A stretch of 64,000 nucleotides of DNA from Thermoanaerobaculia bacterium (GCA_038248205.1 JBBRUC010000002.1:1571-65570); one strand, 5' to 3'; numbered from the stretch's first letter, positions 34,517 to 53,347 are shown. Notes: generated from the letters alone by a model not told the origin. Program-made: numbers and translations.

Positions 34517-36787
34517 TCAGCGCCCGACGACCGCCAAGCCCTGCTCGATCACCTCGTCCCGGCCGGCGATCGCGCCCGCGAGGGTTCTGGCCGCCCGGAT
34601 CGTCGGTTCGATCCCTACGCCGTTCAACGGCGAGCCGTCGCGCGTAAGAGCGCGGCGGCCGATCCAGGCGATCGTCCAGCCTCCGGGGAGGTCGCTCCAG
34701 TTGGGATCGCCGACGTTGCCGGCCGTGCGCGCGCCGACGATTTCGCCGAAGCGATAGGAGGCGATCGTTTCCAGCAGCCGTTCGCCGTTCTGGAAGGTGC
34801 GGGCGTCGGCGAGGAAGGTGAGCTTCGCCGTGATCCTGGGCGCGCGCGGCTCGACGCGGTTGACGGTCCGGAGGAAGCGCGGATCTTGCCGGTACGGGAG
34901 TTGGAAGACCGGCACCTCCCAGGTGAGCGCATCCAGGGTTCTTTCCGTGAGGTGCGAAACGAGCAGCATCGTCACCTCGCTCCAGCCGCGAAGATCGAAC
35001 ACGATGCCCCGGGCCGCGACGAGGCGCGGGAGGGCCCGTTCGAAATCCGCGTCGCGCATCTCGCGCAGATCGACATAGAGAATGCCGGGGCGGGGCTCGG
35101 CGATCGGATCGTACGCAACCGGCGGAGCGGCCGCGGTGCCTGGGTTCGGCCGGTCGAGGCTCAGCTCGAACGGTGCCGCCGCGGCGCCCTGAACGAGCAG
35201 GCGGACGGCGCTCGCCGGGGCGCCCAGGCGGACCGCGTGGAGCGCCAGGGCGCGCCGCGCCTCCTCGGTCGTGCCGGAAACCACCGCCTCGGCCGCGGCG
35301 ATCGCTTCGCCGGCCGGGCGGCCGTCGATCGCGAGAACCCGGTCGCCCGGGTGGAGATTCGGGATCTCCAGGTCGACCCGGGTGATGATCAACTGGCCTT
35401 CGAGCCATTCCCATTGGATCGGCAGCCAGGCCGGGCGCGGATCGCCTTTCTGGTCGACGTCGTTGGCGACGGGATCGTGCAGCGGGACGACCAGGTGCTT
35501 GATCGCGCGGCGAAACGGCTCGCGATCGGTCTCGTCCGCGGCCGCGAGCGCTTCGGGCAGGACGGTGCGTAGAACCGCGATCCACTCGGCGGCCGAGAGG
35601 TCGAGCGTCGCGTGAAAGTGGGCGAGCGCGCCCCAGCCGAGCAGGAGAGCGGCGATGCGGTTGTCCCGGGTATCGGGCGCGGGATCGATCGAATCCCATC
35701 GGTTCGGCCCCCTCGGTCCCAGGGCGCGCGGACGCGTATGCCGCTCCTCGTCGAGCCAGAGGGCGATCGGCACCCGGGCGGAAACGCCCCCGCCGAGGTC
35801 GAATAGAAGCGGCTCGTACGGCCGGCCGAAGCGCGGCTCGGCGACGTCATCGCTCGAAATCACGGCGCAGGCGTCGAGCGCGCACGCCGCGCCGCGGTCG
35901 AGGTCGACGTGAAAGCCCGCGCCGATCGAGTCGTACGGCAATTCCCAGCCGGCCGGCTCGGTGCCGACCTCGCCGGAATCGAAACCGCCGTTTTCGAGCT
36001 TGACCTTCGTCCGCCCGGAAAGCGGCGCGAGCGACACCTCGTCGAGCCAGACTCGGCCCTGGCCCGAAAGGACGGCGAGGACGACGATCCGATCGGCGTC
36101 CGGGGCGACTTCGCCTTCGAGGTCGACGACGCGCCAGCCGGTAGTGCCGACGATCGGCCGATCGGCCATGTTGTCGAGGAAGCCCGGCCGGCCGTCCCGC
36201 CGATCGACGCGCAGGCCGAGCTGGAAGCGGCCGCCGCTCGAAAGCTCCGCGCGGACTCTCGCGCGGAGCCGGATGCGCCGGCCCTTCAGGTCGCCGGGGA
36301 GGACGGCCTGGAAAAGCCGGCCGAAACGCGGGCTCTGACTGTCGATCCGCAGGCTGCGGAAGGCTTTGGAGGTCCCATCGAACTTGCCGCAGAAATGTTG
36401 CCAGGCGACGACCGCCTCTTCGCCGTGGGGGGCCGGACGGAGCGCCTCCGGCAGAGGAGGAACCGCGCCGGCCGGAAACACCTGGACGGTCGGCGCGAGC
36501 GGGTGGAAGAACGCTTCGAGCGAGCGGGCGAGCGTCGCCGGGTCTTCCGCCCCTTCGATCGCGGACACGCCGGCCACCGCGACCCGGTTCCAGTCGGCCG
36601 ACGCCACCTCGTCGCTCGGATGAAAGAAGCGGATCGTCGAGAGCAACTGGGCGTAGGCGGTGAGATTCTCCAACCGCCGTCCCGACGGGGCAACCCTCTC
36701 CCCGAACGATCCGGCCGCGAGCAGGAATAACCCCATCCAGAAGGTGACGGAGACTCCGATCCGGCGGTGAGAGAAACGTAGGGGCAT
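34517..36787 (-). CDS. S41 (tail-specific/tricorn-core-like) peptidase-family protein, possibly catalytically inactive
   Basis: N-terminal TM/signal. PDZ-like segment PGDRVLAIDGRPAGEA. C-terminal S41-like block GIVFDLRGW...FLADARTFQNGERLLETIASYRFGEIVGARTAGNVG...NGVGIEPT. Confidence 0.75.
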   Translation of the reverse strand: MPLRFSHRRIGVSVTFWMGLFLLAAGSFGERVAPSGRRLENLTAYAQLLSTIRFFHPSDEVASADWNRVAVAGVSAIEGAEDPATLARSLEAFFHPLAPTVQVFPAGAVPPLPEALRPAPHGEEAVVAWQHFCGKFDGTSKAFRSLRIDSQSPRFGRLFQAVLPGDLKGRRIRLRARVRAELSSGGRFQLGLRVDRRDGRPGFLDNMADRPIVGTTGWRVVDLEGEVAPDADRIVVLAVLSGQGRVWLDEVSLAPLSGRTKVKLENGGFDSGEVGTEPAGWELPYDSIGAGFHVDLDRGAACALDACAVISSDDVAEPRFGRPYEPLLFDLGGGVSARVPIALWLDEERHTRPRALGPRGPNRWDSIDPAPDTRDNRIAALLLGWGALAHFHATLDLSAAEWIAVLRTVLPEALAAADETDREPFRRAIKHLVVPLHDPVANDVDQKGDPRPAWLPIQWEWLEGQLIITRVDLEIPNLHPGDRVLAIDGRPAGEAIAAAEAVVSGTTEEARRALALHAVRLGAPASAVRLLVQGAAAAPFELSLDRPNPGTAAAPPVAYDPIAEPRPGILYVDLREMRDADFERALPRLVAARGIVFDLRGWSEVTMLLVSHLTERTLDALTWEVPVFQLPYRQDPRFLRTVNRVEPRAPRITAKLTFLADARTFQNGERLLETIASYRFGEIVGARTAGNVGDPNWSDLPGGWTIAWIGRRALTRDGSPLNGVGIEPTIRAARTLAGAIAGRDEVIEQGLAVVGR

Positions 36788-36991: not shown

Positions 36992-39900
36992 TCACTCGAA
37001 GTACCCCACGACATCGATCACCAGATCGACCGGCCCGCCGACGGCCAGGGCTTCGAGAGCGCCGTTGGTGCCCAAACCTACGATCGCGTTGTTGGTGCGC
37101 GTCTGGCCGGAGTGAAAATTCAAGCTGCTCGCTAGCGGCTGCGGCGTGCCGCTCGCCCAGAGGGTGAGGAAGCCGTCGGCCGCCGGTGCGATCGCGGTAA
37201 GGTTCGCCGCCACCGAAACGGCGGCCGGCGGGATCTGGCAGAGATCGAACAATGGGATGGTGCGAGGCTCGCCAGCCGGCAGCGGCGTCGCCTGTCGCGA
37301 GTCGTAGGCCCGGCAGGGCGGCACGGTGTGGAAGCCGAGTCCCACGCGGAAGATGGTGGGCCCGTGGGTGCCTGATTGATTTGGATCGTCGCTCGTTCCC
37401 TGGCTTTCGCTCAGGCCGTCCAGATCGGCGTCGAAGGCAAAGGTAGCCTGGTTCGTCACGAGAGTTTCGGCGGCGACATCGCCGACCAGCGCGCGAATCA
37501 GGATCGTCACCGAGCCGCCCGCCGGCACTTCGCCGTTCCAGGTCACCGTCCGGCCCGCCAGCGCGACGGTACCCGAGGTGGCCGTGGCTTCGAGCGGCAC
37601 GAGCGCCTTGGGGAGCGTATCGGTCAGCTCGGCGCCCGGGTTGTCGGGCTGGCGGCCAGCGCCGGAGTTGGAAAGGTCGATCTGGTAGATCACCTCCCCG
37701 CCGCGGACGAAGGCGCCGGTGACCGATTTGGCTGAGTCCACCGCCGCGCCGAGGCCGGTGCGCGGCAGTCGCCAAAGCTCGAAGCCGGAGGCGGCGTCGG
37801 TCGCGGCGAAATAGACCTCCGAGCCGAAGGCGCCGAACGGGTAGGGGCTCGATGGAAGCGGCCCCGGGGCGATGTCCTGCACCGGCCGGGTGCCCTCCGG
37901 GGTGCCGTCAGAAATGTAGAGTTCGTTGCCGAAACCGGGCAGCTCGGCCGCGAACACGATCGCGGCGCCGATCGACTTCAGGTTTACCGGAAACGACGAC
38001 TCTGCGCCGGGTACCAGGTCGACGAGCAGGCGGGTACCCTCGGGCGTGCCATCGGTGACGAACAGCTCGTGGCCGCGGGTGGGATCTTCGGCGGCGAACA
38101 AAACCCGATCCCCGGCGGCGGCGAAGGAGCGAGCGAACGAGCCCTCGCCGGGATTGGGGGCCAGGTTGGCGAGCTGGAACGTGCCCTCGGGCGTGCCGTC
38201 GCTCACCCAGGGTTCGAGACCGCTTACGCCGTCGTCGGCGGCGAAGACGACGCGAGAACCGAGAGGGGCCGCACGTCCCTCGATACCGACGCCGAACCGA
38301 TCGCCGTAGGTGTCGAACGGCGAGTCGAGGTCGTCGCGCAGGTCGGCGACGAACCGGGTGCCCGCGGCCGTACCGTCGGAGACCCAGAGCGCCGGGCCTG
38401 CCGCGCCGTCGTCGGCGATGAAGTACGCCTGGGAGCCGGCGACGGCGAGACCGTAGGGATTGGACGAAAGCGGTCCCGGGGCGATGTCGGTGAGCCGCGC
38501 GGTGCCGACCGCGGTGCCGTCGGACACCCAGAGCTCGCGGCCATGCTGGCCGGCGGCTTCGCCGTCGGAGGCGGACAAGAGAGCTTTTCCGCCCAGACGG
38601 GCCACGAACCGTGGCGACGAGGAGGCCGATCCGGGGCGAAGATCGGCTACCCGTGTCGTGTTCTGGGCGGTGCCGTCGGAGCGCCATAGCTCGATGCCGC
38701 GATCGGTGAATCCTTGGGGTTCCGAGGTCGCGAGCAGCGCGAAGCCGTCCATCGCGGTGAGCACTGTGGTGCCGGAGCTGGGATTGGCGGTCTCGTGAAC
38801 GACTTGGGTGTTGGCGTTCGTGCCGTCGGTCGCCCATAACGGACCGGTCCCCGAAGCATTCGGGCGGGCGGTAAACAGCCCGAGCGTACCGATCGAAGTG
38901 AGGCCGGTGGGATAGGAACTGCCGACGCCGGGAAGGAGATCGGTGACGATCCGGGTGCCGGCGGCGGTGCCGTCGCTCGCCGCCAGCTCGAACCCCGTCG
39001 TTCCGTCGTCGGCCGTATAGAGGAACGTGCCGTCGTCCAGTGCCACCGGCCCCACCTGGTCGTAGGAGATCTGGAGCCGGTCGAGGCTCGAGGTCTGCTC
39101 GTCGATGCGCCGGACGAGCGCGGTGCCGGCGCTCGTACCGTCCGTCGCCCAGAGCTGCCAGCCCTGTTCAGGGGGGTCGGAAAAAGCGCGGAAGTAGAGC
39201 CGGCCGTTCCACGCGACCGGCAGGTCGTTGGCGGCGAAGCTGCCGAAGTGGGACGCCTCGGGGCCGGGCCGCAGGTCGCGGACCAGCTCGGTTCCACCAG
39301 GCGTACCGTCCGTGCTCCATAGCTCCACGCCATGGACGCCGTCGTCGCCGAAGAAGAGCAGCTTGCCGCCGAACACGGTCAGCTTGTGCGGTGCCCCAAA
39401 AACGTAAAGGCCGCTTTCCGGACCCGGAAAAAGGTCGATCACCGGCTTGGTCCCGACGGCCGATCCGTCGGTCGACCAAAGCTCGCGGCCGGAGGTGCCG
39501 TCCTCGGCAGCGAAGTATGCCTTGTCGCCGTAGGAAATCATCTCCCGCGGGTCGGAGGAATCGGCCCCCGGCCGCAGGTCGAGCCTCTGGGTGCCGCCTT
39601 CGGTGCCGTCGGTGGTCCAAAGCTCCGTGCCATGCACCGCATCGCGCCCGCTGAAGGCCAGGCCGATCGTGCCGATTCTGGTGAAAAAGGAGGGTCCGAT
39701 ACCGATCGGTCCCGGCTCGGCATCGGCAACCATCGCGGTGCCGGCGGAGGTGCCGTCGGTCGCCCACAGCTCCGTGCCGTGTACTCCGTCATCGCCCGCA
39801 AAGTAGAGGCGATCGCCGAAGACGGCATAGGAGAGAAAACCAGGAAAGTCACTATAGCTCTCCAGGCCGCCCGCAGCGCCGGGAAGAATGTCGGCCACCA

Positions 39901-40567
39901 GAACGGTCCCTGCCGAGGTTCCATCGGTGGCCCACAGCTCGCGGCCGTGGATGCCGTCCTCGGCCGAAAAGTACAGCCGGCCGCCGAGTTCGGGGAGAAA
40001 CCGGATCCCCGACCACTGCTCGCCGGGAAAAATATCCGCCAGAAACTGGGTTCCGGCGACCGTGCCGTCCGAGATCCAGAGTTCCGAGCCATGCAGGGGG
40101 TCGGTGCCGACAAAGAGCAGTCGGTTCCCCAGGACGCGCAATTGGTTTGGATTGAGTCCATCGGTGCCGGGGATGATGTCGGCCACCCGAAAGGTGCCGG
40201 CGGCCGTGCCGTCGCTGGTCCAAAGCTCGCGCCCGTGGGCCGGGTCGGCGGCGGAAAAGAAGGCACGGTTCCCGAGAAGGGCGAATTCGTAGGGATATCC
40301 GGAGCAGAACCCCGGGCAAAGGTCCATCAGCAGCTCGGTTCCGGCCGCCGTGCCGTCGCTTCTCCAAAGCTCCGTGCCGTGAACGCCGTCGTTAGCCGAG
40401 AGCAGCATCACGTCGCCGAGCACCAGATACCGAGAGCCGAGAAAATAGGGAAGAAAGAGGCCAGGCGTGGACGGATTGAGATCCGCCACCTGCACCGCCG
40501 GCTGAGCGACCGCGGCGGCGCCCGCGCAGAGGGCGAGGACAAGGATTGAACCCGTTACGGAACGCAT
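36992..40567 (-). CDS. ELWxxDGT-repeat protein with a DUF11-like repeat and conserved C-terminal domain (paralog 2)
   Basis: Same architecture as 30782..34363. C-terminus FRVGLGFHTVPPCRAYDSR...DVVGYFE. ATG at 40567 preferred over the TTG at 40576. Confidence 0.85.
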   Translation of the reverse strand: MRSVTGSILVLALCAGAAAVAQPAVQVADLNPSTPGLFLPYFLGSRYLVLGDVMLLSANDGVHGTELWRSDGTAAGTELLMDLCPGFCSGYPYEFALLGNRAFFSAADPAHGRELWTSDGTAAGTFRVADIIPGTDGLNPNQLRVLGNRLLFVGTDPLHGSELWISDGTVAGTQFLADIFPGEQWSGIRFLPELGGRLYFSAEDGIHGRELWATDGTSAGTVLVADILPGAAGGLESYSDFPGFLSYAVFGDRLYFAGDDGVHGTELWATDGTSAGTAMVADAEPGPIGIGPSFFTRIGTIGLAFSGRDAVHGTELWTTDGTEGGTQRLDLRPGADSSDPREMISYGDKAYFAAEDGTSGRELWSTDGSAVGTKPVIDLFPGPESGLYVFGAPHKLTVFGGKLLFFGDDGVHGVELWSTDGTPGGTELVRDLRPGPEASHFGSFAANDLPVAWNGRLYFRAFSDPPEQGWQLWATDGTSAGTALVRRIDEQTSSLDRLQISYDQVGPVALDDGTFLYTADDGTTGFELAASDGTAAGTRIVTDLLPGVGSSYPTGLTSIGTLGLFTARPNASGTGPLWATDGTNANTQVVHETANPSSGTTVLTAMDGFALLATSEPQGFTDRGIELWRSDGTAQNTTRVADLRPGSASSSPRFVARLGGKALLSASDGEAAGQHGRELWVSDGTAVGTARLTDIAPGPLSSNPYGLAVAGSQAYFIADDGAAGPALWVSDGTAAGTRFVADLRDDLDSPFDTYGDRFGVGIEGRAAPLGSRVVFAADDGVSGLEPWVSDGTPEGTFQLANLAPNPGEGSFARSFAAAGDRVLFAAEDPTRGHELFVTDGTPEGTRLLVDLVPGAESSFPVNLKSIGAAIVFAAELPGFGNELYISDGTPEGTRPVQDIAPGPLPSSPYPFGAFGSEVYFAATDAASGFELWRLPRTGLGAAVDSAKSVTGAFVRGGEVIYQIDLSNSGAGRQPDNPGAELTDTLPKALVPLEATATSGTVALAGRTVTWNGEVPAGGSVTILIRALVGDVAAETLVTNQATFAFDADLDGLSESQGTSDDPNQSGTHGPTIFRVGLGFHTVPPCRAYDSRQATPLPAGEPRTIPLFDLCQIPPAAVSVAANLTAIAPAADGFLTLWASGTPQPLASSLNFHSGQTRTNNAIVGLGTNGALEALAVGGPVDLVIDVVGYFE

Positions 40568-40628
40568 AGATCTCAAAGTTTACAGAGTTTCGTTCAAATC
40601 GGGCGCTCCTCGCCGCTGCGCTTTTTTC

Positions 40629-40684
40629 CCTGGGTGCGCGGGCGTCTCGCCCGCACGAGCGGGCCGGAGGCCCGCGTACCCAGG
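40629..40684. repeat. REP-like nested palindrome, copy C (intergenic)
   Basis: CCTGGGTGCGCGGGCGTCTCGCCCGC-ACGA-GCGGGCCGGAGGCCCGCGTACCCAGG. Lies about 60 nt upstream of the ELWxxDGT paralog 2 start. The left flank cctcgccgctgcgctttttt matches the copy B flank cctcgccgctacggttttct. Confidence 0.9.
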
Positions 40685-40753
40685 AATCCCAGCGGCGGCG
40701 AAGGTGGGCCGGGACGGACCGTCGGAAGAGACCTCCGCGCCGCCGGAAGGGAT

Positions 40754-41157
40754 CTTCGGACGATCGGGAGAAGCTTCCGCGCGAGCGGAAGGGAGATCCG
40801 GGTCGTCCGGGAGGGCTCCGGCCGGCCGGGACTTCTCTTCCGGTCGCCGGTGAGCCTCTCCGGGGGTGCGGGATCTTTCTTCCGGTCCCGCGGATCACCC
40901 TTCCGAGGACGGGGAGGGTTCTACGCGCGGGTGGAAGGGTTCTTCCGACGACCGGGGAGGCCTTCGGTAGGCTCGGGATGCCCCTTCCGTACTTCCGTGA
41001 GGCTCTTCCGTCGGCGGGGATCTCTCTTCCGGGCCCGAGTAGGGCCCTTCCAGGGACCGGGAAGGGCCTTCGGACGGTCGGAAGGCCACTTCGAGCAGCC
41101 GGAAGTCCTCTTCGAGCAGCTGGAAGACCCCTTCGGGCGGCCGAAATACCCCTTCCG
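40754..41157. repeat. Degenerate tandem array of about 20 units with 21-bp period (GGAAG-N-CTTC(C/G)G motif)
   Basis: The CTTC(C/G)(G/A) core recurs at 40984, 41005, 41026, 41047, 41068, 41089, 41110, 41131 and 41152 (exactly 21 nt apart). Spacing is 20-22 nt further left (40754, 40774, 40795, 40815, 40837, 40857, 40879, 40900, 40942, 40962). Confidence 0.85.
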
Positions 41158-41328
41158 GCGGTCCATCTGGGTATTTTTTACTCCCGGAGACGAGAATCTT
41201 TCGACTTTTGCCCGAAAAGCTCGATTTCTCGGAATCTATGCTCTACAAGGAGGGTCGCGCTCTAGCCGGGCGTGGCCGGACGGCGATTCCGCCGCTTCCG
41301 CGCCGACCAGTAGAAAGAGGGTAGCGAC

Positions 41329-41709
41329 ATGAAGAGCATCCGTAGCTTTGCCGACGTGGTCCGCGATTGGGAGGAGTTGCTCGAAGCGGTCAACGACAAC
41401 GCCGAGGTTCTCGCCCCGGCGTCCTCCCAGCAGCAAGCGCTGGAAGCCTCGCTCGCGGCGCTCCGGGCCAAGCGGACGCAGCAGGCCTCCTGCACCGCCA
41501 ACCGCCAGAAGGCGACGCAGGATCTCCACGGTCTGATCCGTCAGGGCAACGAGAACGCGCGCCGCCTGCGCGGGATCGTCAAGGCTCTCTTCGGCACCAC
41601 GAGCGAGCAGCTGGTTCAGTTCCGGGTCGCCCCGATCCGCAGCCGCCGTAGCTCGAAGTCGACCGAGCCGGTCCCGGCCGAAGCGGCGGCCGGCGGTTCG
41701 GGCCAGTAA
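41329..41709 (+). CDS. Hypothetical coiled-coil-like protein (126 aa)
   Basis: AGAGGG lies upstream of the ATG. Protein-like sequence MKSIRSFADVVRDWEELLEAVNDNAEVL.... Followed by a strong terminator. Confidence 0.6.
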   Translation: MKSIRSFADVVRDWEELLEAVNDNAEVLAPASSQQQALEASLAALRAKRTQQASCTANRQKATQDLHGLIRQGNENARRLRGIVKALFGTTSEQLVQFRVAPIRSRRSSKSTEPVPAEAAAGGSGQ

Positions 41710-41730
41710 GGCGCGGCCTCCGTAGGCCGA

Positions 41731-41768
41731 GGGGGCGTGGAGCGTTCGGGCTCCACGCCCCTTTTTTC
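41731..41768 (+). terminator. Intrinsic terminator
   Basis: GGGGCGTGGAGC-gttcg-GGCTCCACGCCCC followed by TTTTTTCG, between convergent genes. Confidence 0.75.
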
Positions 41769-41804: not shown

Positions 41805-44800
41805 CTACCGCCCCGCCTTCTGGAGCGTTTCGATCAGGAAAAGGATCTCGGCGGCCATCGTAGGGTGAAACTCCGGGTTTTCGGCGAGCGCAACGTCGCG
41901 GCTGCCGCCGACGATGGCTTGAAGGGCGCGGATGAAACCGCCGAAGCCGGCTGCCTCGAAACGCGGAAGCTGTTGCTGGAGGAGGGCCGCCGCCTCGTCC
42001 GTTTCCTCGGCGAGCAGCGACCGCGTCACGGCGAGGCTGATGCGGCCGGGGTCTGTATGGTTCTCGCCGCCGTCCCCACGGTAGGCGAGATAGCCGGCGA
42101 TGGCCTTGGCCCGAGCCTCCGCGGCGGCGGCGGGTTGGCCGGCGTCCGTCTCGATGTCGGAGAGGATGGCCCAGGTCGTCCACGGCTCGGACGCATGGCC
42201 GTAGGGCGCCTTGCATTCGATCGCCCGGCGGATTTCTTCGAGTGCTTCGTCGAAGCGGCGGAGCTTGCGGAGCGTTTCACCGAGGTTGCTCCTCGCGCGG
42301 CCTTCGTGTGCCAGGTCGCCGCTCACGACATACTTGTCGGTCGCCTGCCGGTAGAAAGCCACGGCCTCCTCCGGCCGGCCGAGGACCTCCTTATAAAGGT
42401 TTCCCAATTGCAGGAGCGTGCTCGCCTGCCCGGCGAGATTGCCGAGCCGCACGCTGATCGCGAGCGATTTCCGGTAGGCCTCCTCCGCCGCCTCCGGCTG
42501 GCCGGCCTCCTGGTGCGTGATACCGGTCTGATGCCAGCTCACGGCGACGATGCCCGGTTCGTTCAATCGGGTGAACCGCTCGCGCGCCTCCTTGTGCGCC
42601 GCGAGCGCCTCCGGGTAGAGGCGCTGAGCGAGGCGGACGGTCCCCAACTGGCCTTTGCCCACGGCGACCTGCCGGTCTTCGCCGAGTTGCTCGCTTCGGT
42701 GGATGCTCACTTCGTAGGCCGCCGCCGCTTCGTCGAGCCGGCCGAGGAAAAGAAGGCAGTCGCCCTGTTCCGCAAAGCAGGCGGCCGCCATCCGTCCCGC
42801 GCCTGGGTGTGGCCGTTCCTCGGCGACGGACTCGAAGCGCACGTGGGCCTCGTCCAGCAGGGGGAGGGCCCGCTCCGAACCGCCGGCCGTCTTCCATACA
42901 CGGGCCAGGAGAAAGCAACCCCCTCCCAGGTCATAGTCGGCACCCGGATAAGACTGCACGCCCGCCGCCCGAGCGCGTTCCAGCAAGATTTGCGCGCCTT
43001 CGAGCGCCTCGCGCAACCGCCCTTGGCCCCACTGTTGCTCGACGCGGGTCCGCGCCGCCTCGAAGCGGGCGTGGCTCCAGGCTCCGCCGGGCGCCTCCAG
43101 CTTCTCTGCCGCCGCGTCGCGCACCTGCCCCACACGCTCCAGCAGCCGCGGCTTGCCGAGCCATTGCAGCAGGCCGTAGAGCGAGGTGGCTAGGCCGATC
43201 GTTGCTTCCTGGTCCCTCGCGCGCTCCAGCCGGTCAAGCAGGGCGAAGAGGTTCGGCAGCTCCAGACCGGTCAGCGTCGCCACGACCTCAGTGCTTTGGC
43301 TCTGCTGCTGTCTAAGGAATTCGACATACCCGATCATCGCCTCGACCCAGCGGGCGGTGAGCGCTTCGCGCTCCTTGCCGTCCATCCGTCCGCGGAGGTA
43401 GGGGCAGAGGGCGGGGTCGAGGGTGAGGTGGTTGTAGGGGTTCGGCGTCGCTAGGCCGGTTTCGACCAGCTCGCCCGCGAGCGCGGTGATGTCCGACATT
43501 TCCCACTGCTTCATCACGCGGAGGACGTCCAGATCGACCGCGCCGTGAAACACGCCAAGCACGCGCGCTCTCGTCTGATTCTCGAGAGACAGGCGCCGCA
43601 GCGAAAGCTCGACGCTCGCGAAGACAGATTTCTCCCGGCTTTCAGGAGACCCGACCGGGAAGCGCCGGTCCATCTCCTCCATCAGCTCCACAAGCGCCTC
43701 GCGGGTGGCCTCCACCCCTCGGGCGCGGAGGGAGGGCGCCAGAAGGGTGAGCGTGCGGGCGTGGCCGTAGACGGCATCGACCAGCGCCTCGATCGCCTCG
43801 CGCGCGGCGTCGTAGGCCTTGCCGGTCCCGGCGGTTCCGGAGCTGCTCGATTCGTTCAAAACGCGCTCGACGAGCTTGACCGCGTCTTCGCGGCCGAGGT
43901 GGAAGAGTTCTCTCCGGTTGCGCGCCCCATCGAACGGCGCAGGGAGCGTCTCGCGGCTGGTGAAGACGAGGCGCGTGTCACCCGCCTTGAGCAGCCGAGC
44001 GCAGAGGTCGAGAATCGCCTTCAGCTCCCGGGCCGCCTCTTCGGTGAGGGCGTTCGGCATCTCCTCATCAAGGTAGGGCGGCAGGAGGATGCTCTCCATG
44101 TTGTCGACCACCAGGAGCGTCGACTGCTCGCGGAGGGCGCGCTCGATCGGCAAAATGGACTTCTCCAGAGTGTCGAAGGCGACCGAGTAGGACTCGCCCG
44201 CGAGCTGCCTGCCGATCTCGTTGAGTACTGACGCCGCGTTGCCATGCGTCTCGACCGAAACGAACGCCGCCCGGCGGACCTGCTGCGAGCGCACCATCCA
44301 CCGCGCGAATTCGGCCGCGAGGGCGGTCTTCCCTTCGCCGCCCTGCCCGCGCACCACGGCGTAGCGGTTGTCGCGGTCGTTGCGCAGCAGACGCTCTAGC
44401 GCCAGCAGCTCTCGGCTCCGGCCGACGAAGCCGGTCGCGGGAGTGGGTGGCAGATCGCCGAGGCGATCGGCGAGTGCCTTCTTCCAATCCTCAACCGTCT
44501 GCTTCGCAGGCGTGGTCTTGAAGAGCTGGGGATCGTCCTTTTCTTGGAACAGAACGGGCACGAACCAGTCCTCCAACCGCAGCTCGCCCTTTCCGAAGAT
44601 CTGTTCGCGAAACGTGTCGTCCTTGAGTCGGCGTTGGCCCGCGAGCATGGCGTCGCCCACCCGCTTGCCGGCCGCCAGCGCGCGGTAGAACTCGCCGACG
44701 AAGAGGCGGGCGGTAGCGACCAGGATGCTGTGGCTCATCGCGACGACCGAGGCGACCCCCACCTTCAGCAGTTCGGACGCGACCGATTCCGACGCCTTCT

Positions 44801-46247
44801 CCGCCTGCGCGCTTTGGCAGGCTTCGAGGAAGACCAGCGGGATGCGGTAATCGCGCAGCAGCGGGCCGAGATCGTTCGTGAAGATGGTGACGTGCCCGCG
44901 TTTCTCCAGTTTGCGCTCATCCTCGGGCAGCTCGAAACACAACCCGCCCAGACCGACGGCCTGGTCATAGACACCGTGACCATTGAAATGAACGACGTGG
45001 TACGGCTGTCGCACGGTATCGGCGCGGTCGAGTTCCTCGCGCAGAGCGGAGAGAGTCGGCGGGCTCAAGAGGCGAATCTCGACCAGGCCGGGCAGCGACT
45101 CCATCGCTTCGACCAAAGGCAGCGCGCTCGCGCGGTGGTCGATGTAACCGCAGGCGTCGTCCTCCGGACGCGCCGTAATGAGGAGGATGCGGATGGGAGG
45201 ATCGACGACCGGAACCCCGTAGGACTCCGTGCTCGCCAGTTGCCGGCGTACGCGAGTGGGCTTCTTGCCTTGGAACAGGTACGACTTGCGATCGTGAAGC
45301 AGTTCCCACGGAAGGCCGAGCAGCACGGTCGAGACTTCCTGGGCCTCCTTCCTCTGTTCCTTCGTGGCGTCGGCCTCCAGCGTGGCTTCGAGGTCCACAT
45401 GAACCGAGAATCGGCGCCCGGCGTGTTCGGCGATCTTGGCCCACGCCTCCCTGACGTTCGCGGTTTCGGAGAGGGGCATCGCGACCTCGTACAACCGGGC
45501 TCCCCATTCGGCGAGGCTTTCCACTACCCTCCGCGCCCGGTCCTGGATCACTGAGATTCCCGAGGGCCACTTGACGTACTGTTCGAGATACCATCGGATC
45601 TCCGCCGCCTCGATCGGCCCGATGGGCGCGACCAAGCGCCACGCTTTGGCGCTATGGGTCGCGCTCGAACCCAACGTCGCCGGCTGATACACTAACCGAG
45701 CCCGGGCCGACGCTCGAAACGTATTTTCGACCTCGACAAACCTGAAATCGGTCAACTCAAGGACCAACTCCTCCAACGGCTCCGCCGTCGGCTGCGGGGT
45801 GGGCGGCACTTCCGCGGGCAGGCGTTCGCCCATCGCCGCGAGGAGGTCATTCATCGCCGCCTCGACGCCGCCCGCGGCTCTGCTCACGGAGAGGAACAGC
45901 GGTTTCTTTCCGACCAGCTTTCCGAGCGCACCCAAACCCGCGCCGTCGAGCGCCAGCGGGATCAGCCGATAGTTCTTCGCCCCGCGCTTCCGCCTCACCC
46001 GGACCGCGTGCGCGACTTCGTCCGCCACCCAATCCGACTGCAAGGAATCCGTGCTGACGACGAACGCGAAACCCGAGGCCTCCTCGATCGCCTTTTGAAT
46101 CTCCGGCCAGAGCGCATCCCCGCCCCGCAGCTCGCGCGAATCGATCCATCCGTCGTGCCCATGGTCGGCGAGCGTCCGGCGTAGCTCGCGCACGAAGGCG
46201 TCGTCCTTCGAGCTGTGGGAAATGAAGAGTTTGCTCATGGCAGTCAT
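41805..46247 (-). CDS. TIR - CHAT (caspase-like protease) - STAND/NB-ARC-type P-loop NTPase - TPR fusion protein (1480 aa)
   Basis: TIR: KLFISHSSKDDAFVREL...STDSLQSDWVADEVAHA (aa ~5-135). CHAT: HVVHFNGHG (His424) and LVFLEACQS (Cys477), then VASVVAMSHSI...FYRAL. NTPase: FVGRSRELLALERLL, Walker A GQGGEGKT (aa 634-641; 44348-44325), Walker B LLVVDNME. C-terminal ~400 aa are TPR-like. Confidence 0.85.
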   Translation of the reverse strand: MTAMSKLFISHSSKDDAFVRELRRTLADHGHDGWIDSRELRGGDALWPEIQKAIEEASGFAFVVSTDSLQSDWVADEVAHAVRVRRKRGAKNYRLIPLALDGAGLGALGKLVGKKPLFLSVSRAAGGVEAAMNDLLAAMGERLPAEVPPTPQPTAEPLEELVLELTDFRFVEVENTFRASARARLVYQPATLGSSATHSAKAWRLVAPIGPIEAAEIRWYLEQYVKWPSGISVIQDRARRVVESLAEWGARLYEVAMPLSETANVREAWAKIAEHAGRRFSVHVDLEATLEADATKEQRKEAQEVSTVLLGLPWELLHDRKSYLFQGKKPTRVRRQLASTESYGVPVVDPPIRILLITARPEDDACGYIDHRASALPLVEAMESLPGLVEIRLLSPPTLSALREELDRADTVRQPYHVVHFNGHGVYDQAVGLGGLCFELPEDERKLEKRGHVTIFTNDLGPLLRDYRIPLVFLEACQSAQAEKASESVASELLKVGVASVVAMSHSILVATARLFVGEFYRALAAGKRVGDAMLAGQRRLKDDTFREQIFGKGELRLEDWFVPVLFQEKDDPQLFKTTPAKQTVEDWKKALADRLGDLPPTPATGFVGRSRELLALERLLRNDRDNRYAVVRGQGGEGKTALAAEFARWMVRSQQVRRAAFVSVETHGNAASVLNEIGRQLAGESYSVAFDTLEKSILPIERALREQSTLLVVDNMESILLPPYLDEEMPNALTEEAARELKAILDLCARLLKAGDTRLVFTSRETLPAPFDGARNRRELFHLGREDAVKLVERVLNESSSSGTAGTGKAYDAAREAIEALVDAVYGHARTLTLLAPSLRARGVEATREALVELMEEMDRRFPVGSPESREKSVFASVELSLRRLSLENQTRARVLGVFHGAVDLDVLRVMKQWEMSDITALAGELVETGLATPNPYNHLTLDPALCPYLRGRMDGKEREALTARWVEAMIGYVEFLRQQQSQSTEVVATLTGLELPNLFALLDRLERARDQEATIGLATSLYGLLQWLGKPRLLERVGQVRDAAAEKLEAPGGAWSHARFEAARTRVEQQWGQGRLREALEGAQILLERARAAGVQSYPGADYDLGGGCFLLARVWKTAGGSERALPLLDEAHVRFESVAEERPHPGAGRMAAACFAEQGDCLLFLGRLDEAAAAYEVSIHRSEQLGEDRQVAVGKGQLGTVRLAQRLYPEALAAHKEARERFTRLNEPGIVAVSWHQTGITHQEAGQPEAAEEAYRKSLAISVRLGNLAGQASTLLQLGNLYKEVLGRPEEAVAFYRQATDKYVVSGDLAHEGRARSNLGETLRKLRRFDEALEEIRRAIECKAPYGHASEPWTTWAILSDIETDAGQPAAAAEARAKAIAGYLAYRGDGGENHTDPGRISLAVTRSLLAEETDEAAALLQQQLPRFEAAGFGGFIRALQAIVGGSRDVALAENPEFHPTMAAEILFLIETLQKAGR

Positions 46248-46275: not shown

Positions 46276-48444
46276 CTACGTCCCTGCCGCCCGGGCGATC
46301 ACCGCCTGGCCGAGTGCCAAACCGCCGTCGTTGGGCGGCACCTTCCGGTGAGTGAGAACCTCAAACCCGGCGCGGGCGAGACCTTCGATCGCGAGGCGGA
46401 GCAGCAGCACGTTTTGGAACACGCCGCCGGAGAGGGCGACGATCGAAACCCCAGTCTTCCGGCGCCCGTGAAGGCAGGCGGCGACCAGGGCGTGGGCGAC
46501 CGCGGCGTGGAAGCGTCGTGCGATCCGACCGGGATCTTCGCCCCGCAGGCGGTCGCGTACCACCGCCGCGAGCAACGGCGCGGGATCGAGCAGCAGGTGC
46601 TCCTCGTCGCGCAGGGCGAAGCGGTAGCGCGTTGCGCCATCGTCAGCGATCCCAACGGCGGCGGCCGCCGCTTCGAGTTCCATCGCCGCCTGCCCCTCGT
46701 AGTGCGCGTCCTGGCAGAGACCGGCAAGAGGGGCCACCGCATCGAACAGGCGCCCCATGCTGCTCGTGGGCACCGTGCCGAAGCCGGTCGCGAGCTGGCG
46801 GGCGAGGATGCGCCGCTCCCGGTCGGGAGTGGCCGCGACGGGGGGAAGGTGCGGATGCCAGTCGATTCCCGCGGCGGCGAGGTGAGCGAGCGCCATCCGC
46901 CGCGGGTGGCGAATTGCGGCGTCCCCACCCGGCAGCGGCGCGTAGCGCAGATGGGCGAGCCGCTGGGCGCGGGTGTAGTCGGCGAGCAGGATCTCGCCCC
47001 CCCAGATCGCGCCGTCTAACCCATAGCCCGTGCCGTCGAAGCTCGCGCCCAGCACCGGTTTCTCGCCGGTGAGTCCGTGCTCGGCCATCACCGCGGCGAT
47101 GTGCGCATGATGGTGCTGCACGCGGACGAGCGGCAGACCGCGCTCCGCCGCTAGGGCGAGTGCCCAGCGGGTGCCCAGATAGTCGGGGTGGAGATCGCAG
47201 GCGATCCGCTCGGGCTCGATGCGAAACAGGCCGGAGAGATGGTCGACCATCCGTTCAAACGCCGCGAGTGTTTCGAGATTGCCCAGGTCGCCGATGTGCT
47301 GCGAGAGAAACGCGCGGCCGCCGCGGGCGAGGCAGAACGTCGCCTTGAGTTCGGCGCCGACCGCGAGCAGCGGCGGCGCCGGAGGCTCGACGGGCGGCAG
47401 CGCGATCGGCATCGGCGCATAGCCGCGCGAGCGGCGCATCGGCAGCTCGTGCCCGGCGAATAGCCGGACCACCGAGTCGTCGCAGACGGCGTGGATCGCC
47501 CGGTCGTGGAGCAAAAAGGCGTCGGCGAGGTCGCCCAGCCGTTCGAGCGCCTCGTCGTCCTCGCGGCAGATCGGCTCTTCGCTCCGGTTGCCCGAGGTCA
47601 TCACCAGGATGCGCCCGGCGAGCAGCAGATGATGGAGCGGCGAATAGGGCAGGACCAGGCCGAGCATCGCCTGGCCGGGCGCCACCTGATCCGAGAGGCG
47701 AGGAGGCGCACCGACCGGTCTCTTGGCGACCAGGACGATCGGCCGCTCGCGGCTTTCCAGCAGCCGTTCCTCGTCGGCATCGATCCGGGCCAGCCCGTGC
47801 GCGGCGGCGAGGTCCGGCACCATCACGGCGAACGGCTTGCCGCCGCGACCCTTCCGGCGGCGCAATTCGGCCACCGCCTCGTCAGACGTGGCGTCGCACG
47901 CGAGGTGAAAACCGCCGACCCCCTTGATCGCCACGATCCGACCCGCGTCGAGCATGCTCCCGGCAGCTTCGAGCGCCGCTTCGGTTTCTACCTGGGTGCG
48001 CGGGCCTCCGGCCCGCTGTTGCGGGCGAGACGCCCGCGCACCCAGGAACTCTAGCGAAGGGCCGCATTCCGGGCAGGCGTTGGGTTGGGCGTGAAAACGC
48101 CGGCTCGCCGGATCGTCATACTCCGCCTGATAGAGCGGGCACATGGCGAAGGCTCGCATCGTCGTCTTCGGCCGGTCGTAGGGGAGCGACTCGACGATCG
48201 TGAAGCGCGGGCCGCAATCGGTGCAATTGATGAACGGGTAGCGGAAGCGGCGATCCGCGGGGTCGAGCATTTCGGCGAGGCAGGCGGTGCAGACCGCGAC
48301 GTCGGGAGAGACCGGGGTGGGAACGGCCGCCGCCGCGCTGCTCTTTAAGGCGACCCGCAAGACGCCGACGCGGCGCTCGCCGCCCTGCGCTCCCACCCCC
48401 TCGGCCGCCAGGCAGCGATCATCGGCCGCGTCACCGATCGCCAC
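46276..48444 (-). CDS. hypF: HypF-like carbamoyltransferase lacking the N-terminal acylphosphatase domain
   Basis: Zn-finger region CTACLAEMLDPADRRFRYPFINCTDCGPRFTIV and RRFHAQPNACPECGP. YrdC-like IVAIKGVGGFHLACDA. Kae1-like C-terminal half. An in-frame stop lies 23 codons upstream of the GTG start. Confidence 0.85.
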   Translation of the reverse strand: MAIGDAADDRCLAAEGVGAQGGERRVGVLRVALKSSAAAAVPTPVSPDVAVCTACLAEMLDPADRRFRYPFINCTDCGPRFTIVESLPYDRPKTTMRAFAMCPLYQAEYDDPASRRFHAQPNACPECGPSLEFLGARASRPQQRAGGPRTQVETEAALEAAGSMLDAGRIVAIKGVGGFHLACDATSDEAVAELRRRKGRGGKPFAVMVPDLAAAHGLARIDADEERLLESRERPIVLVAKRPVGAPPRLSDQVAPGQAMLGLVLPYSPLHHLLLAGRILVMTSGNRSEEPICREDDEALERLGDLADAFLLHDRAIHAVCDDSVVRLFAGHELPMRRSRGYAPMPIALPPVEPPAPPLLAVGAELKATFCLARGGRAFLSQHIGDLGNLETLAAFERMVDHLSGLFRIEPERIACDLHPDYLGTRWALALAAERGLPLVRVQHHHAHIAAVMAEHGLTGEKPVLGASFDGTGYGLDGAIWGGEILLADYTRAQRLAHLRYAPLPGGDAAIRHPRRMALAHLAAAGIDWHPHLPPVAATPDRERRILARQLATGFGTVPTSSMGRLFDAVAPLAGLCQDAHYEGQAAMELEAAAAAVGIADDGATRYRFALRDEEHLLLDPAPLLAAVVRDRLRGEDPGRIARRFHAAVAHALVAACLHGRRKTGVSIVALSGGVFQNVLLLRLAIEGLARAGFEVLTHRKVPPNDGGLALGQAVIARAAGT
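47991..48046. repeat. REP-like nested palindrome, copy D (in-frame inside hypF)
   Basis: CCTGGGTGCGCGGGCCTCCGGCCCGC-TGTT-GCGGGCGAGACGCCCGCGCACCCAGG. Translated as LGARASRPQQRAGGPRTQV in the HypF linker. Coordinates anchored on the stop of ORF 47491..48054. Confidence 0.9.
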
Positions 48445-51429: not shown

Positions 51430-51590
51430 TAGTTCTCCTTCGGTCTCGGAAGCGACGTTGAACGAGCCTCGCCCCCGTAGGAAGTCTACGGCACGGGCCG
51501 GCGAACGGATCATGCCGGCCGGCCTGGCCCCTGATGGTTTCCTTTGCCGAGGGTAAGTCTGCGGTTACAGGCGGAGATTCCGAGGAAGTC

Positions 51591-52190
51591 TTAGAGGTGG
51601 CGCAGGCGATCGAGCAGCCTCTTGGCGTGAGGAAAGGCATTCTCGACCGACGTTGGATCCAGCTGGCCAAGTAGCTCGAAAGAGACTCTGCCTTTGGCGT
51701 AGGGCTTTTTGCAGCCCGCCGTGGCTCTTGTGAGAGCGCTCAGAACGTCCGCCTTTGGGACATCTTCCAGGGTAGGTCGGGACCGAAGGTGCTCGTCTCG
51801 AAGGGCTGTGCCGAAGTATCGGCGAAGCGACGCTCGATCGGCCAGAAACCAACTCTCCATGATCTGTACCATCAGGAACGCCTGATCGTCCGACGATCCG
51901 TCCGGTCTGTCCCAGCCGTCCCGGGCCTTCAAGTGTTGCCATACCGAGGCGGTCGTCGCGACAGGCCCTTCGGAATCCACGAGCAGTAGCGGCAGCTCGC
52001 CGTTCCGAGGATTGCGAACCGCGGTAGCGAAAAGGTCGAACGTTCGGAGGCGCCCCTTGCCCCGAACGATTCTCGGCATGCGCCCGGAGAGGCCGGCTGA
52101 TTTGAAGAACTGAGTCCAGGCCTCCCGAAACAGCGTGTCCAAGTACTGCCCCTCGCCGCCCCCTTCGGCATAGATCTTCGCGGTCACCAT
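51591..52190 (-). CDS. DUF4276-like protein (partner of the upstream ATPase)
   Basis: MVTAKIYAEGGGEGQYLDTLFREAW...LLLVDSEGPV. This resembles, from memory, the DUF4276 family that is usually paired with an AAA/ABC-type ATPase. The start overlaps the ATPase stop by 7 nt (ATGGTGA). Confidence 0.6.
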   Translation of the reverse strand: MVTAKIYAEGGGEGQYLDTLFREAWTQFFKSAGLSGRMPRIVRGKGRLRTFDLFATAVRNPRNGELPLLLVDSEGPVATTASVWQHLKARDGWDRPDGSSDDQAFLMVQIMESWFLADRASLRRYFGTALRDEHLRSRPTLEDVPKADVLSALTRATAGCKKPYAKGRVSFELLGQLDPTSVENAFPHAKRLLDRLRHL

Positions 52191-53347
52191 CGATTGGCTC
52201 CCAACTCACCCATGCTCCAAAGATCGCCGAGGGTGTACCTTTCGAGCCAATCCGCAAGGGCCTCCCGGTTGAGCCGTTCGAACCGCGACTCGCCATCGAC
52301 CTTCTCGCAGACGACGACGCTGGACGGGCGATCCGAGAGCGCGTCGACCAGCATTCGGGAATGCGTCGTCACGACGAGCTGGGTGCGTTCCGAGGCGCGT
52401 ACCAAGAGTTCGGCAACATGAGGGATGACATCTGGATGGAGGCCAAGCTCGGGCTCTTCGATGGCGATCAACGGCGGAGGCTCGGGGTGGAGCAGAATGG
52501 CAAGGAGGCTCAGGTATCGGAGCGTACCGTCGGAGAGACGGGTGGCCGGGATCTCCCTCCCTCCGCTTTCCTCCAGAAAGAGCATGACGTTTCCGCCGCT
52601 TACGGAGAGATTAAGGTCCACGATTCCGTCGAAGAGTTTGCGAAGCGAGTTGAGCAAATCGACCTTGGATTGAGACCGAAACCTGGAGAGCACCAGGGCT
52701 AGGTTTTCGCCGCCATCATTCAAAACGTCGCCTCGACCCTGAGCGCTCTGCTCACGACGCCAAGCGGCCCCCGGCCCGAATGACCAGTTGCGGTAAAGGC
52801 GGATGCGTTCGTACTGCTCTTGCAGCCAGCTCAGCACCGGATAGGCCTCGGGGTCACGAACCTGCGAAAGAATCGATTCCTCGGGCTTCACGCTTTCTCG
52901 CTTCAACCCCCTTTGGGTTCTGGAGAGATCGTTCAGTACCGGTCGGCCCTCTTGGAACCGATAGTAGAAATAAGGCTCAGGGTAGCTGCCTATCGGAGCC
53001 TTGTTTTCGATCCTCTCGTCGGTTACCTCGAAGCGGCTGCCGTGTTCGGTGATCTGAAGGACGTGGCGGACCGGCATCTGACCGTTCGGATTGTCGACCA
53101 CTACGTCGATTTTGGCCTCGCGCGATGACGTTGGACCTTTCCAGAGCCATTCTTTGACTCCGCCCATCTCCTTGACCGGCTCCGGCAAGTGGCTGGGGGC
53201 CGCGCGGAGCAGCGCGAGCACTTCGAGAAGATTGGACTTGCCGGAGCCGTTGGGGCCGATCAGGACGTTCAAGCCCTCCAGCGGGAGGTCGATCCCCGTC
53301 GGGCCGAACGACAGCAGGCCGGAGACTTTGAGTCGGTGGATCAGCAT
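52184..53347 (-). CDS. ABC/SMC-like AAA ATPase (AAA_21/AAA_15-type)
   Basis: Walker A GPNGSGKSNLLE. ABC signature-like LSDGTLRYLSLLAIL. Walker B LIAIEEPELGLHP. H-loop TTHS. Confidence 0.85.
   Translation of the reverse strand: MLIHRLKVSGLLSFGPTGIDLPLEGLNVLIGPNGSGKSNLLEVLALLRAAPSHLPEPVKEMGGVKEWLWKGPTSSREAKIDVVVDNPNGQMPVRHVLQITEHGSRFEVTDERIENKAPIGSYPEPYFYYRFQEGRPVLNDLSRTQRGLKRESVKPEESILSQVRDPEAYPVLSWLQEQYERIRLYRNWSFGPGAAWRREQSAQGRGDVLNDGGENLALVLSRFRSQSKVDLLNSLRKLFDGIVDLNLSVSGGNVMLFLEESGGREIPATRLSDGTLRYLSLLAILLHPEPPPLIAIEEPELGLHPDVIPHVAELLVRASERTQLVVTTHSRMLVDALSDRPSSVVVCEKVDGESRFERLNREALADWLERYTLGDLWSMGELGANRW

Follow-up and report, generated by a model that had tools for sequence, protein, structure and literature searches.

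A TIR-CHAT-STAND-TPR protein of a Thermoanaerobaculia bacterium as a candidate single-chain receptor with two effector domains

Domain architecture

We analyzed a 64,000-nucleotide stretch of DNA from a Thermoanaerobaculia bacterium (GCA_038248205.1 JBBRUC010000002.1:1571-65570), which as a whole is called the window here, and in it a gene on the minus strand (41805-46247) that encodes a TIR domain, a pre-CHAT module, a CHAT protease domain, a STAND NTPase and a TPR-like sensor in one chain. The open reading frame (ORF) list and the translation give a single unbroken ORF of 1480 codons plus stop. An original prediction, made from the sequence alone, had placed TIR and CHAT effectors ahead of a STAND module and a TPR region in one polypeptide; this order is borne out by Pfam and by AlphaFold2 (AF2) models compared with Foldseek, and all the motifs it had quoted lie where it put them (E77, H424, C477, GQGGEGKT at 634-641 and LLVVDNME at 711-718). 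In profile searches, TIR_2 and CHAT score well above their Pfam cut-offs and TPR families are matched. The gene is real and intact, and the four domain calls are confirmed. Its guanine-cytosine (GC) content, 0.670 against 0.667 for the window, shows no anomaly. Residues are numbered from Met1 of the 1480-codon ORF, as in the original prediction, and the coordinates of all parts of the protein refer to the minus strand; since the aligned homologs share the start MSKLF, the true start codon is probably Met4 (nt 46238).

The TIR domain (residues 4-140, 45828-46238) was delimited with Pfam TIR_2 and with sequence and Foldseek matches in the PDB. TIR_2 (PF13676) covers residues 8-102 (E 5.1e-21, 75.9 bits against a cut-off of 28), and Glu77 (codon 46017-46019, within QSDWVADEV) occupies the catalytic position, in agreement with the proposal of a TIR_2-like N-terminus carrying the Glu of NAD+-cleaving TIRs (NADases). 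This Glu, which belongs to a W-x-x-x-E helix, is kept in all 120 of the closest homologs, the set in which the conservation of catalytic residues was scored, and in 57 of 60 divergent TIR-bearing clusters, each taken as its 50%-identity representative. The closest PDB sequences are AbTIR, Cat1 and the TIR-APAZ protein of SPARTA, and the TIR model retrieves the TIRs of SPARTA, AbTir and SARM1. With the fold and the catalytic-position Glu both present and enzymatic NADases as the nearest solved TIRs, the domain is predicted to be of the NADase type. TIR domains can also be pure adaptors, as in animal TLR signaling, and MyD88 TIR assemblies do occur low in the Foldseek list. A TIR that serves as a mere scaffold or oligomerization adaptor, like the animal TLR/MyD88 TIRs, and leaves CHAT as the sole enzyme is nevertheless very unlikely, given the retention of the Glu, the enzymatic nature of the best matches in both sequence and structure, and the lineages described below that have lost the CHAT dyad and still keep the TIR Glu.

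Residues 81-120 of the TIR domain (nt ~45888-46007) depart from the rest of the family: the window gene is 37% identical to its close homologs over this segment, where the family consensus is about 80% conserved. The charge is reversed there, with GKLVGKKP in place of the family's EEFFGEEP, and the reading frame is intact. The domain is followed by a Pro-rich flexible linker, ERLPAEVPPTPQPTAE (residues 141-156, 45780-45827), in which the predicted local distance difference test score (pLDDT) of the AF2 model falls below 50 at residues 144-156. Relatives that have no TIR start just past the position of this linker.

Residues 157-306 (45330-45779) form a conserved pre-CHAT module, which is the N-terminus of the TIR-less relatives. 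It was recognized from the family alignment, where it carries the motif APLGPIEAxELRWYLExYxxWP, and from the AF2 model, which shows a long beta-hairpin and helices; block-mean pLDDT ranges from about 51 to 90 over residues 161-300 and reaches 85-90 in the beta-hairpin and helices at 241-270. A profile of the module found nothing significant among PDB sequences and Pfam families, and Foldseek matches of the N-terminal model are dominated by the TIR domain. The CHAT domain that follows, a clan CD caspase-like protease domain (residues 307-560, 44568-45329), is matched by Pfam CHAT (PF12770) over residues 307-544 (E 3.8e-19, 69.7 bits against a cut-off of 24) and, at the domain level, by PADLOC SAVED_CHAT (E 3e-7); the caspase family PF00656 gives no Pfam match in the window protein at E<=1. 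The intact dyad that had been proposed is present, His424 in HFNGHG (codon 44976-44978) and Cys477 in LEACQS (codon 44817-44819), and is kept in 119 and 120 of the 120 closest homologs, respectively. The pairs H424-G425 and A476-C477 are likewise kept in 119-120 of these homologs and in most divergent clusters.

The STAND module begins with a P-loop nucleotide-binding domain (NBD; residues 606-780, 43908-44432), recognized from Pfam AAA_22 and from intact Walker motifs: Walker A is GQGGEGKT (residues 634-641, nt 44325-44348) and Walker B is LLVVDNME (residues 711-718, nt 44094-44117). AAA_22 matches residues 627-748 (E 8.9e-07, 29.7 bits against a cut-off of 27) and is the only P-loop family above its cut-off, so that the P-loop STAND module proposed earlier is matched weakly in sequence and is supported in structure by 6mfv and Apaf-1. 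The Walker A Lys is present in 245 of 246 family members and the Walker B Asp in 244 of 246. The helical and winged-helix part (HD/WHD) of the nucleotide-binding oligomerization domain (NOD) follows at residues 781-955 (43383-43907), delimited by AF2, which gives helices with short strands at 903-943, and by Foldseek. Over residues 561-1480, the AF2 model has a pLDDT of 78 and runs from an alpha/beta P-loop domain through the helical/winged-helix part into continuous helical repeats; its best Foldseek match in the PDB is a STAND NB-ARC-TPR protein (6mfv, E 2.8e-10), and Apaf-1 (3shf, 3sfz) is matched as well.

The last part of the chain is an all-helical TPR-like repeat region (residues 956-1480, 41808-43382), the presumed sensor, which was defined with Pfam TPR families, AF2 and Foldseek. 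TPR_12, TPR_1 and TPR_8 match at 1213-1346, with E down to 3.9e-24 (85.1 bits against a cut-off of 30.1), block-mean pLDDT is 68-97 and mostly above 80, and both Foldseek and phmmer relate the repeats to LGN/Pins TPRs. The TPR repeats of the original prediction are therefore present, but by AF2 they extend over about 525 residues (~956-1480) and not about 400. Because the 561-1480 model matches 6mfv and Apaf-1 and the repeats match LGN/Pins, the switch is, as modeled, a NOD resembling those of NB-ARC/AP-ATPases, followed by a canonical TPR arm. Conservation along the whole chain is nearly flat, with mean pairwise identities of 66% for TIR, 66% for pre-CHAT, 77% for CHAT, 71% for the NBD, 68% for HD/WHD and 63-64% for TPR, which makes CHAT the most conserved domain.

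Modularity of the effectors

Among the 60 TIR-bearing representatives, 48 have both catalytic sites intact. Nine have lost the CHAT dyad and kept the TIR Glu, two have lost the TIR Glu and kept the dyad, and one has lost both. Either catalytic center has thus been lost alone in some lineages, whereas the Walker residues are essentially invariant. There is also a sizeable TIR-less subfamily that starts at the pre-CHAT module and has an intact CHAT dyad; at the two of its loci that were inspected, no TIR gene lies upstream. One TIR-less protein (P0245) bears a C-terminal PNP_UDP_1 nucleoside-phosphorylase domain. Given that TIR may be present, absent or replaced by this phosphorylase, and that the catalytic sites are lost separately, the family core is, by sequence comparison, pre-CHAT, CHAT, NB-ARC-like NTPase (NOD) and TPR, with TIR apparently an evolutionary add-on. 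A second, nucleotide-directed effector (TIR or phosphorylase) appears to have been added onto this core, and in some lineages TIR is the sole effector predicted to be catalytically intact.

Three of the variant proteins have further peculiarities. P0245 is encoded (L084, L085) beside Frankia_peptide genes and another CHAT protein, a gene with an FGE-sulfatase domain starts 8 nt after that of the TIR-less P0124, and P0017 has a C-terminal nucleotidyltransferase extension (NTP_transf_2), which may be a fusion with the downstream gene.

We hold it to be just on the probable side that the protein is a stand-alone, single-chain bacterial NOD-like receptor (NLR)-like protein, in which oligomerization would activate two effectors in parallel, a TIR NADase and a CHAT protease. 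The modularity and the separate losses of the two sites fit two parallel effectors under one STAND switch, and most likely these would be partly redundant. Following what is known of STAND/NLR proteins, TIR NADases and caspases, the mechanism might run as follows. At rest, the receptor would be an autoinhibited monomer, kept in this state by the TPR arm and bound ADP. A conserved cue (a protein or a peptide), most likely from a phage or other invader, would bind the TPR region and permit nucleotide exchange and oligomerization, and this would gather the N-terminal domains, such that the TIRs could form a composite NAD+-cleaving site and the CHAT domains could be activated by induced proximity. 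NAD+ loss and proteolysis would then arrest or kill the infected cell (abortive infection).

The same chain could also be read as a cascade, in which a STAND-activated TIR makes a cyclic ADP-ribose-type signal, pre-CHAT reads it and CHAT executes. A precedent exists in type IV Thoeris, where TIR-made N7-cyclic ADP-ribose (N7-cADPR) activates a caspase-like protease (bioRxiv 10.1101/2024.10.24.620036); here, the conserved module at 157-306, with no Pfam or PDB match, lies directly between TIR and CHAT, and the TIR Glu is almost never lost when the TIR is present. However, since many TIR-less relatives keep pre-CHAT and an intact CHAT dyad, CHAT activation would seem to need no TIR product, and an obligate TIR-to-CHAT signal is disfavored. 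In the nine TIR-bearing clusters that have lost the dyad and kept the Glu, TIR is presumably not working via CHAT catalysis, and the protease itself is CHAT (PF12770) and not of the PF00656 family of type IV Thoeris. Such a cascade is therefore quite unlikely in our estimation. We give a similarly small chance to a wider version, a pan-bacterial and slowly evolving innate immune receptor in which the STAND-assembled TIR makes an NAD-derived signal or alters local NAD+, pre-CHAT senses this and licenses CHAT, and the TPR region reads a near-universal ligand of an invader or of danger; were this coupling of effectors true, such a ligand would explain how a protein that differs so little can function across a dozen phyla.

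Alternatively, CHAT could be a site-specific processing protease that cuts the Pro-rich linker and so frees the TIR, or that cuts another protein, a proenzyme or pore-former whose gene lies elsewhere in the genome. Protease-activated partners recur in bacterial immunity, as in nuclease-protease pairs (PMC12799240), the SAVED-CHAT to PCaspase cascade is a precedent, and the low-pLDDT segment of the linker does part the TIR from the remainder of the protein. Yet no conserved partner gene is found near the gene in the 83 loci analyzed below. Obligate CHAT processing of TIR is disfavored because CHAT-dead members keep the TIR and its Glu, which implies that the TIR needs no CHAT cleavage in those lineages; and because TIR-less members keep an intact dyad, TIR would not be an obligate CHAT substrate. 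We regard processing by CHAT as distinctly improbable, and return below to the reading of two effectors activated in parallel.

Distribution and transfer of the family

The original prediction had called the architecture unusual and had not recognized it as a characterized system. No model of a named system matches it; it is, however, not rare. A word-indexed search returned 1460 matches, the best 120 of which are full-length, 66-76% identical and from very different phyla. An exhaustive search with residues 1-1130 gave 1173 clusters at 50% identity (E<=1e-30), many of them full-length at 35-60% identity. In the GTDB, relatives occur in 240 of 185,579 species representatives, with a patchy distribution. 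We retrieved 79 GTDB loci (58-76% identity, full length, about a dozen phyla), with relatives in Acidobacteriota, Pseudomonadota, Verrucomicrobiota, Planctomycetota, Cyanobacteriota, Chloroflexota, Gemmatimonadota, Myxococcota, Chlorobiaceae, Nitrospirales and Armatimonadota. Cultured strains account for two of these loci (Nitrosomonas oligotropha Nm45 and Rhabdochromatium marinum DSM 5261). The relative nearest to the window gene, at 76% identity, comes from Thermoanaerobaculia.

Mean identity is 68.5% within phyla and 67.6% between them, and the nearest relative belongs to another phylum for 21 of 49 loci. On these comparisons, the phylogeny is decoupled from taxonomy, and the family has evidently been widely transferred. 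The GC content of family genes follows that of the host (r = 0.77) and is on average 4.4 points higher. A mobile-element vehicle was considered and rejected: flanks are conserved only between congeners, the best plasmid or phage matches are CHAT-STAND relatives at 24-34% identity, and the window shows no GC anomaly.

In some genomes the gene occurs as two or three paralogs or as copies in tandem. Multi-copy genomes include those of a Cyanobium (L031), a Pyrinomonadaceae member (L047) and a proteobacterial metagenome-assembled genome (MAG; L067), together with Holophagales MAG loci (L014, L020, L032). The paralog copies are about 60-73% identical to the query, and some lie in tandem or a few kb apart. 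The frameshifted pieces in L067 may be pseudogenes or long-read assembly errors.

Genomic context and the case for an immune role

Partner genes were sought by all-versus-all clustering of the ORFs within 6 kb of the gene at 83 loci. No recurrent neighbor emerged in these loci; the best cluster occurs in eight of them, and the remainder is lineage synteny. Similarly, a Pfam scan of the 141 nearest-neighbor ORFs found no family in more than three members. With no gene traveling with the family members, the gene is best described as a single-gene module. Both immediate neighbors that the original prediction had listed in the window are there, a HypF-like gene 28 nt upstream on the same strand (HypF_C_2, E 7e-83) and a convergent 126-aa ORF (41329-41709, plus strand). 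HypF is absent beside all homologs and the 126-aa ORF recurs in a single Thermoanaerobaculia locus (L007), so neither was retained as a partner.

PADLOC matches at E<=1e-5 were found for roughly 10-14 of the 141 nearest neighbors, an estimate obtained by summing per-family counts and not distinct members. The families matched include PDC-S66/TIR, PDC-M28B, AbiU, PDC-S01, mad3/8, MzaE and bSEFIR, none in more than three. Defense-like neighbors appear to be modestly over-represented. Three long contigs were read gene by gene, and two proved to be housekeeping contexts and one a toxin-antitoxin/restriction island. Some toxin-antitoxin and restriction-modification islands and the apparent modest excess suggest that homologs may sit in defense islands, but contexts are mostly housekeeping. 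Around the window gene itself, HypF, HMG-CoA reductase, MsrA, hemA/C/D and purA are housekeeping genes, and one of ten proteins encoded nearby has a PADLOC match, to a candidate HEC-01A defense ATPase.

By analogy with related receptors, an immune or suicide role of the TIR-CHAT-STAND-TPR protein is most likely, and our best guess is an invader-derived trigger, because the spread is patchy and driven by horizontal transfer, paralogs have expanded, effectors are modular and defense-like neighbors are in modest excess. The immune or abortive-infection candidacy put forward by the original prediction is therefore plausible with respect to transfer, paralogs and modular effectors; the role is one that we infer, and the neighbors are mostly housekeeping.

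Several observations weigh against this proposal. The AF2 model of residues 1-600 is moderate only (pLDDT 65), although its TIR part is confident. NB-ARC (PF00931) matches residues 618-716 of the window protein at E 4.1e-04 with 20.1 bits, under the cut-off of 23.5, which is passed by the family members P0128 (29.7 bits) and P0245 (27.1 bits). No close homolog was found on sequenced plasmids or phages, most homologs have ordinary metabolic genes as neighbors, and a literature search found no experiment on any family member. The presumed TPR sensor (63-64%) is nearly as conserved as the NBD and the TIR, and the family thus lacks the pattern of a hypervariable sensor in an arms race. In the Thermoanaerobaculia loci L006 and L007, moreover, the TIR-CHAT protein is 70-71% identical, compared with ~45% for the adjacent DUF11 protein. 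From this contrast with a syntenic neighbor, we infer strong purifying selection on the TIR-CHAT protein; the synteny and high conservation in Thermoanaerobaculia would also fit a conserved cellular role. A hypervariable sensor was considered separately and rejected, as the TPR region is only slightly more variable than the rest and paralog pairs give mixed patterns.

These points bear most directly on the alternative of a non-antiviral, STAND-regulated stress, dormancy or programmed-death switch, which would be conserved and would sense a conserved endogenous ligand, for instance a metabolite or a host protein that has been damaged or has misfolded. Uniformly high conservation that includes the sensor, synteny in Thermoanaerobaculia with conservation far above that of neighboring genes, mostly housekeeping contexts and a GC content indistinguishable from that of the host window are all in its favor. 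CHAT proteases can also be developmental, and the window protein has a match to HetF (NCBIfam), albeit a weak one (E 1e-4, far under the cut-off). Nevertheless, we find such a switch rather unlikely, since a distribution over 240 of 185,579 species representatives, a phylogeny decoupled from taxonomy, multi-copy and tandem paralogs, effector swaps in which TIR is present, absent or replaced by the phosphorylase, and the enrichment of defense-like genes next door at some loci suggest an accessory conflict gene and not core physiology. That TIR and CHAT would remodel metabolism and proteome under such a switch is doubtful to a like extent. An NLR-like immune receptor with parallel effectors accordingly remains the reading that we carry into the comparison with described systems.

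Comparison with described systems

We compared the window protein with the models of PADLOC-DB v2 at E<=1. Sixteen families matched, all through TIR, CHAT or TPR domains and none of them an Avs or bNACHT model. Membership in Avs, bNACHT or Thoeris was rejected because no PADLOC model matches beyond an isolated TIR or CHAT domain; the original statement that this is no recognized, characterized system stands, with no Avs, bNACHT or Thoeris model matching the whole protein. We found no description of a TIR-CHAT-STAND-TPR chain in the literature searched, and a 2026 STAND survey, which covers 589 clades (PMC13581612), may include the present one. Both TIR and CHAT are reported to recur often at the N-terminus of bacterial NB-ARC/TPR NLRs (bioRxiv 10.1101/2020.01.06.895854), and proteins that combine AP-ATPase, TPR and caspase have been described (PMC8195603). 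The ingredients are known, and a dual-effector NLR-like STAND chain is a variant of them and not a new category.

Avs1-5 and later families (PMC13581612) are likewise encoded by a single gene, with an effector at the N-terminus, then a STAND module, and a large sensor of helical repeats at the C-terminus; the effectors known from Avs proteins include TIR, and horizontal transfer and patchy distribution are common to both. Unlike Avs, the window protein has two tandem catalytic effectors instead of one, its NTPase is NB-ARC/AP-ATPase-like and its sensor consists of canonical LGN-like TPRs, and no Avs structure is among the top 50 PDB fold matches of residues 561-1480. It differs from bNACHT proteins in that NACHT (PF05729) matches residues 628-769 at E 0.022, with 15 bits against a cut-off of 26.7.

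The NBD, the helical/winged-helix NOD and the repeat sensor are shared with the PH0952-type NB-ARC-TPR protein (6mfv) and with Apaf-1, and autoinhibition by the repeat arm would be expected in the same way. PH0952 has no enzymatic effector, however, and Apaf-1 recruits a caspase via CARD, whereas here a caspase-like protease is fused to the receptor, plus a TIR. Plant TNL resistosomes (RPP1, ROQ1) likewise place a TIR, with its catalytic Glu, ahead of an NTPase of the NB-ARC type. In plant TNLs, NADase activity depends on oligomerization, and the same logic would be expected here. Unlike in TNLs, the sensor is TPR and not leucine-rich repeats, about 400 residues of pre-CHAT and CHAT stand between TIR and NTPase, and there is no EDS1-type downstream pathway for the window protein.

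Type IV Thoeris (a TIR protein and the caspase-like ThsE; bioRxiv 10.1101/2024.10.24.620036) also pairs a TIR enzyme with a clan CD cysteine protease, but as two separate proteins that communicate by diffusible N7-cADPR. Its protease has PF00656 with a C-terminal signal-binding domain where the window protein has CHAT, it has no STAND or TPR, and our family census argues against obligate TIR-to-protease signaling. A type IV Thoeris two-gene operon was rejected as a description of the locus on the grounds of a single polypeptide, no PF00656 match and no conserved adjacent gene. The NLR-like conflict proteins described by Aravind, Koonin and Dyrka, in which a caspase or TIR precedes an AP-ATPase and TPR (PMC7159879, PMC8195603, 10.1101/2020.01.06.895854), share the domain vocabulary and the predicted role in death or immunity. 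Those reports dwell on multicellular bacteria (cyanobacteria, actinomycetes and myxobacteria) and on ternary systems of several genes, whereas the present family is stand-alone and found mainly in unicellular environmental bacteria (Acidobacteriota, Competibacter/Accumulibacter, Nitrosomonas, Cyanobium and Planctomycetota). In Thiohalocapsa, a protein that combines CHAT with TIR has been noted as the target of a diversity-generating retroelement (PMC10907252), but it has a hypervariable C-type lectin sensor in contrast to the conserved TPR sensor here. Finally, the CRISPR-associated CHAT proteases (TPR-CHAT/Csx29 of type III-E and SAVED-CHAT of type III-B) have a His/Cys-dyad CHAT, with TPR in the same protein, but are activated by a Cas complex or cyclic oligoadenylate and cleave defined partner proteins; the window protein has no CRISPR context and no SAVED domain, and has a STAND NTPase as its switch.

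If the receptor reading is true, the protein would be a compact prokaryotic counterpart of a plant TNL resistosome, with its TIR on NB-ARC, and of an apoptosome, with its caspase activated on an Apaf-1-like NTPase, in one polypeptide. It would then allow one to ask whether death effectors that differ in chemistry are redundant, synergistic or sequential when a single receptor carries both. The family is abundant in environmental and industrial bacteria such as Accumulibacter, Competibacter/Contendobacter, Nitrosomonas, Cyanobium and Acidobacteriota, groups in which, to our knowledge, phage defense has been poorly studied. The conserved sensor suggests that one trigger, once identified, could generalize across phyla. 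The present practical value lies in a well-defined candidate for experiments.

Other features of the window

The HypF homolog upstream (46276-48444, minus strand) begins directly at the zinc-finger region, with zf-HYPF at its residues 51-84; it has no acylphosphatase-domain match, and no other hyp or hydrogenase genes are among the nearby ORFs scanned. The 126-aa ORF has no Pfam or PADLOC match, and its counterpart in L007 is 74% identical and in the same position. After it lies a strong hairpin, GC-rich and 15 bp long, with a T-run (41729-41764), resembling an intrinsic terminator.

Positions 40715-41160 hold a degenerate array with a 21-nt periodicity (units like CGGAAG...CTTC), also visible as 42-nt repeats, in the divergent intergenic region between a giant gene with a DUF11 domain and the 126-aa ORF. 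A 232-aa Arg/Gly/Phe-rich ORF that spans it (40634-41332) is probably spurious. A related stretch precedes the counterpart of the 126-aa ORF in L007 only. The giant gene is one of two paralogs (30782-34363 and 36992-40576, both minus strand) whose products are about 1190 aa long and carry DUF11 at the C-terminus, and between them lies a gene for a 756-aa protein with a Peptidase_S41 domain (34517-36787, minus strand). In L006 and L007, too, a DUF11 giant gene lies in synteny downstream of the gene for the TIR-CHAT protein.

About 6 kb from the TIR-CHAT gene, the HEC-01A candidate is a 387-aa AAA_21/ABC-type ATPase (52184-53347, minus strand; PADLOC HEC-01A, E 1.4e-158), with an overlapping downstream ORF of 243 aa (51565-52296) that has no Pfam or PADLOC match. 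Together (51565-53347, minus strand), they look like a separate two-gene candidate defense system amid housekeeping genes. Further along, a 499-aa ORF (61656-63155, plus strand) carries a Peptidase_M91 'effector protein' domain (E 3e-10), which is unusual in its metabolic surroundings.

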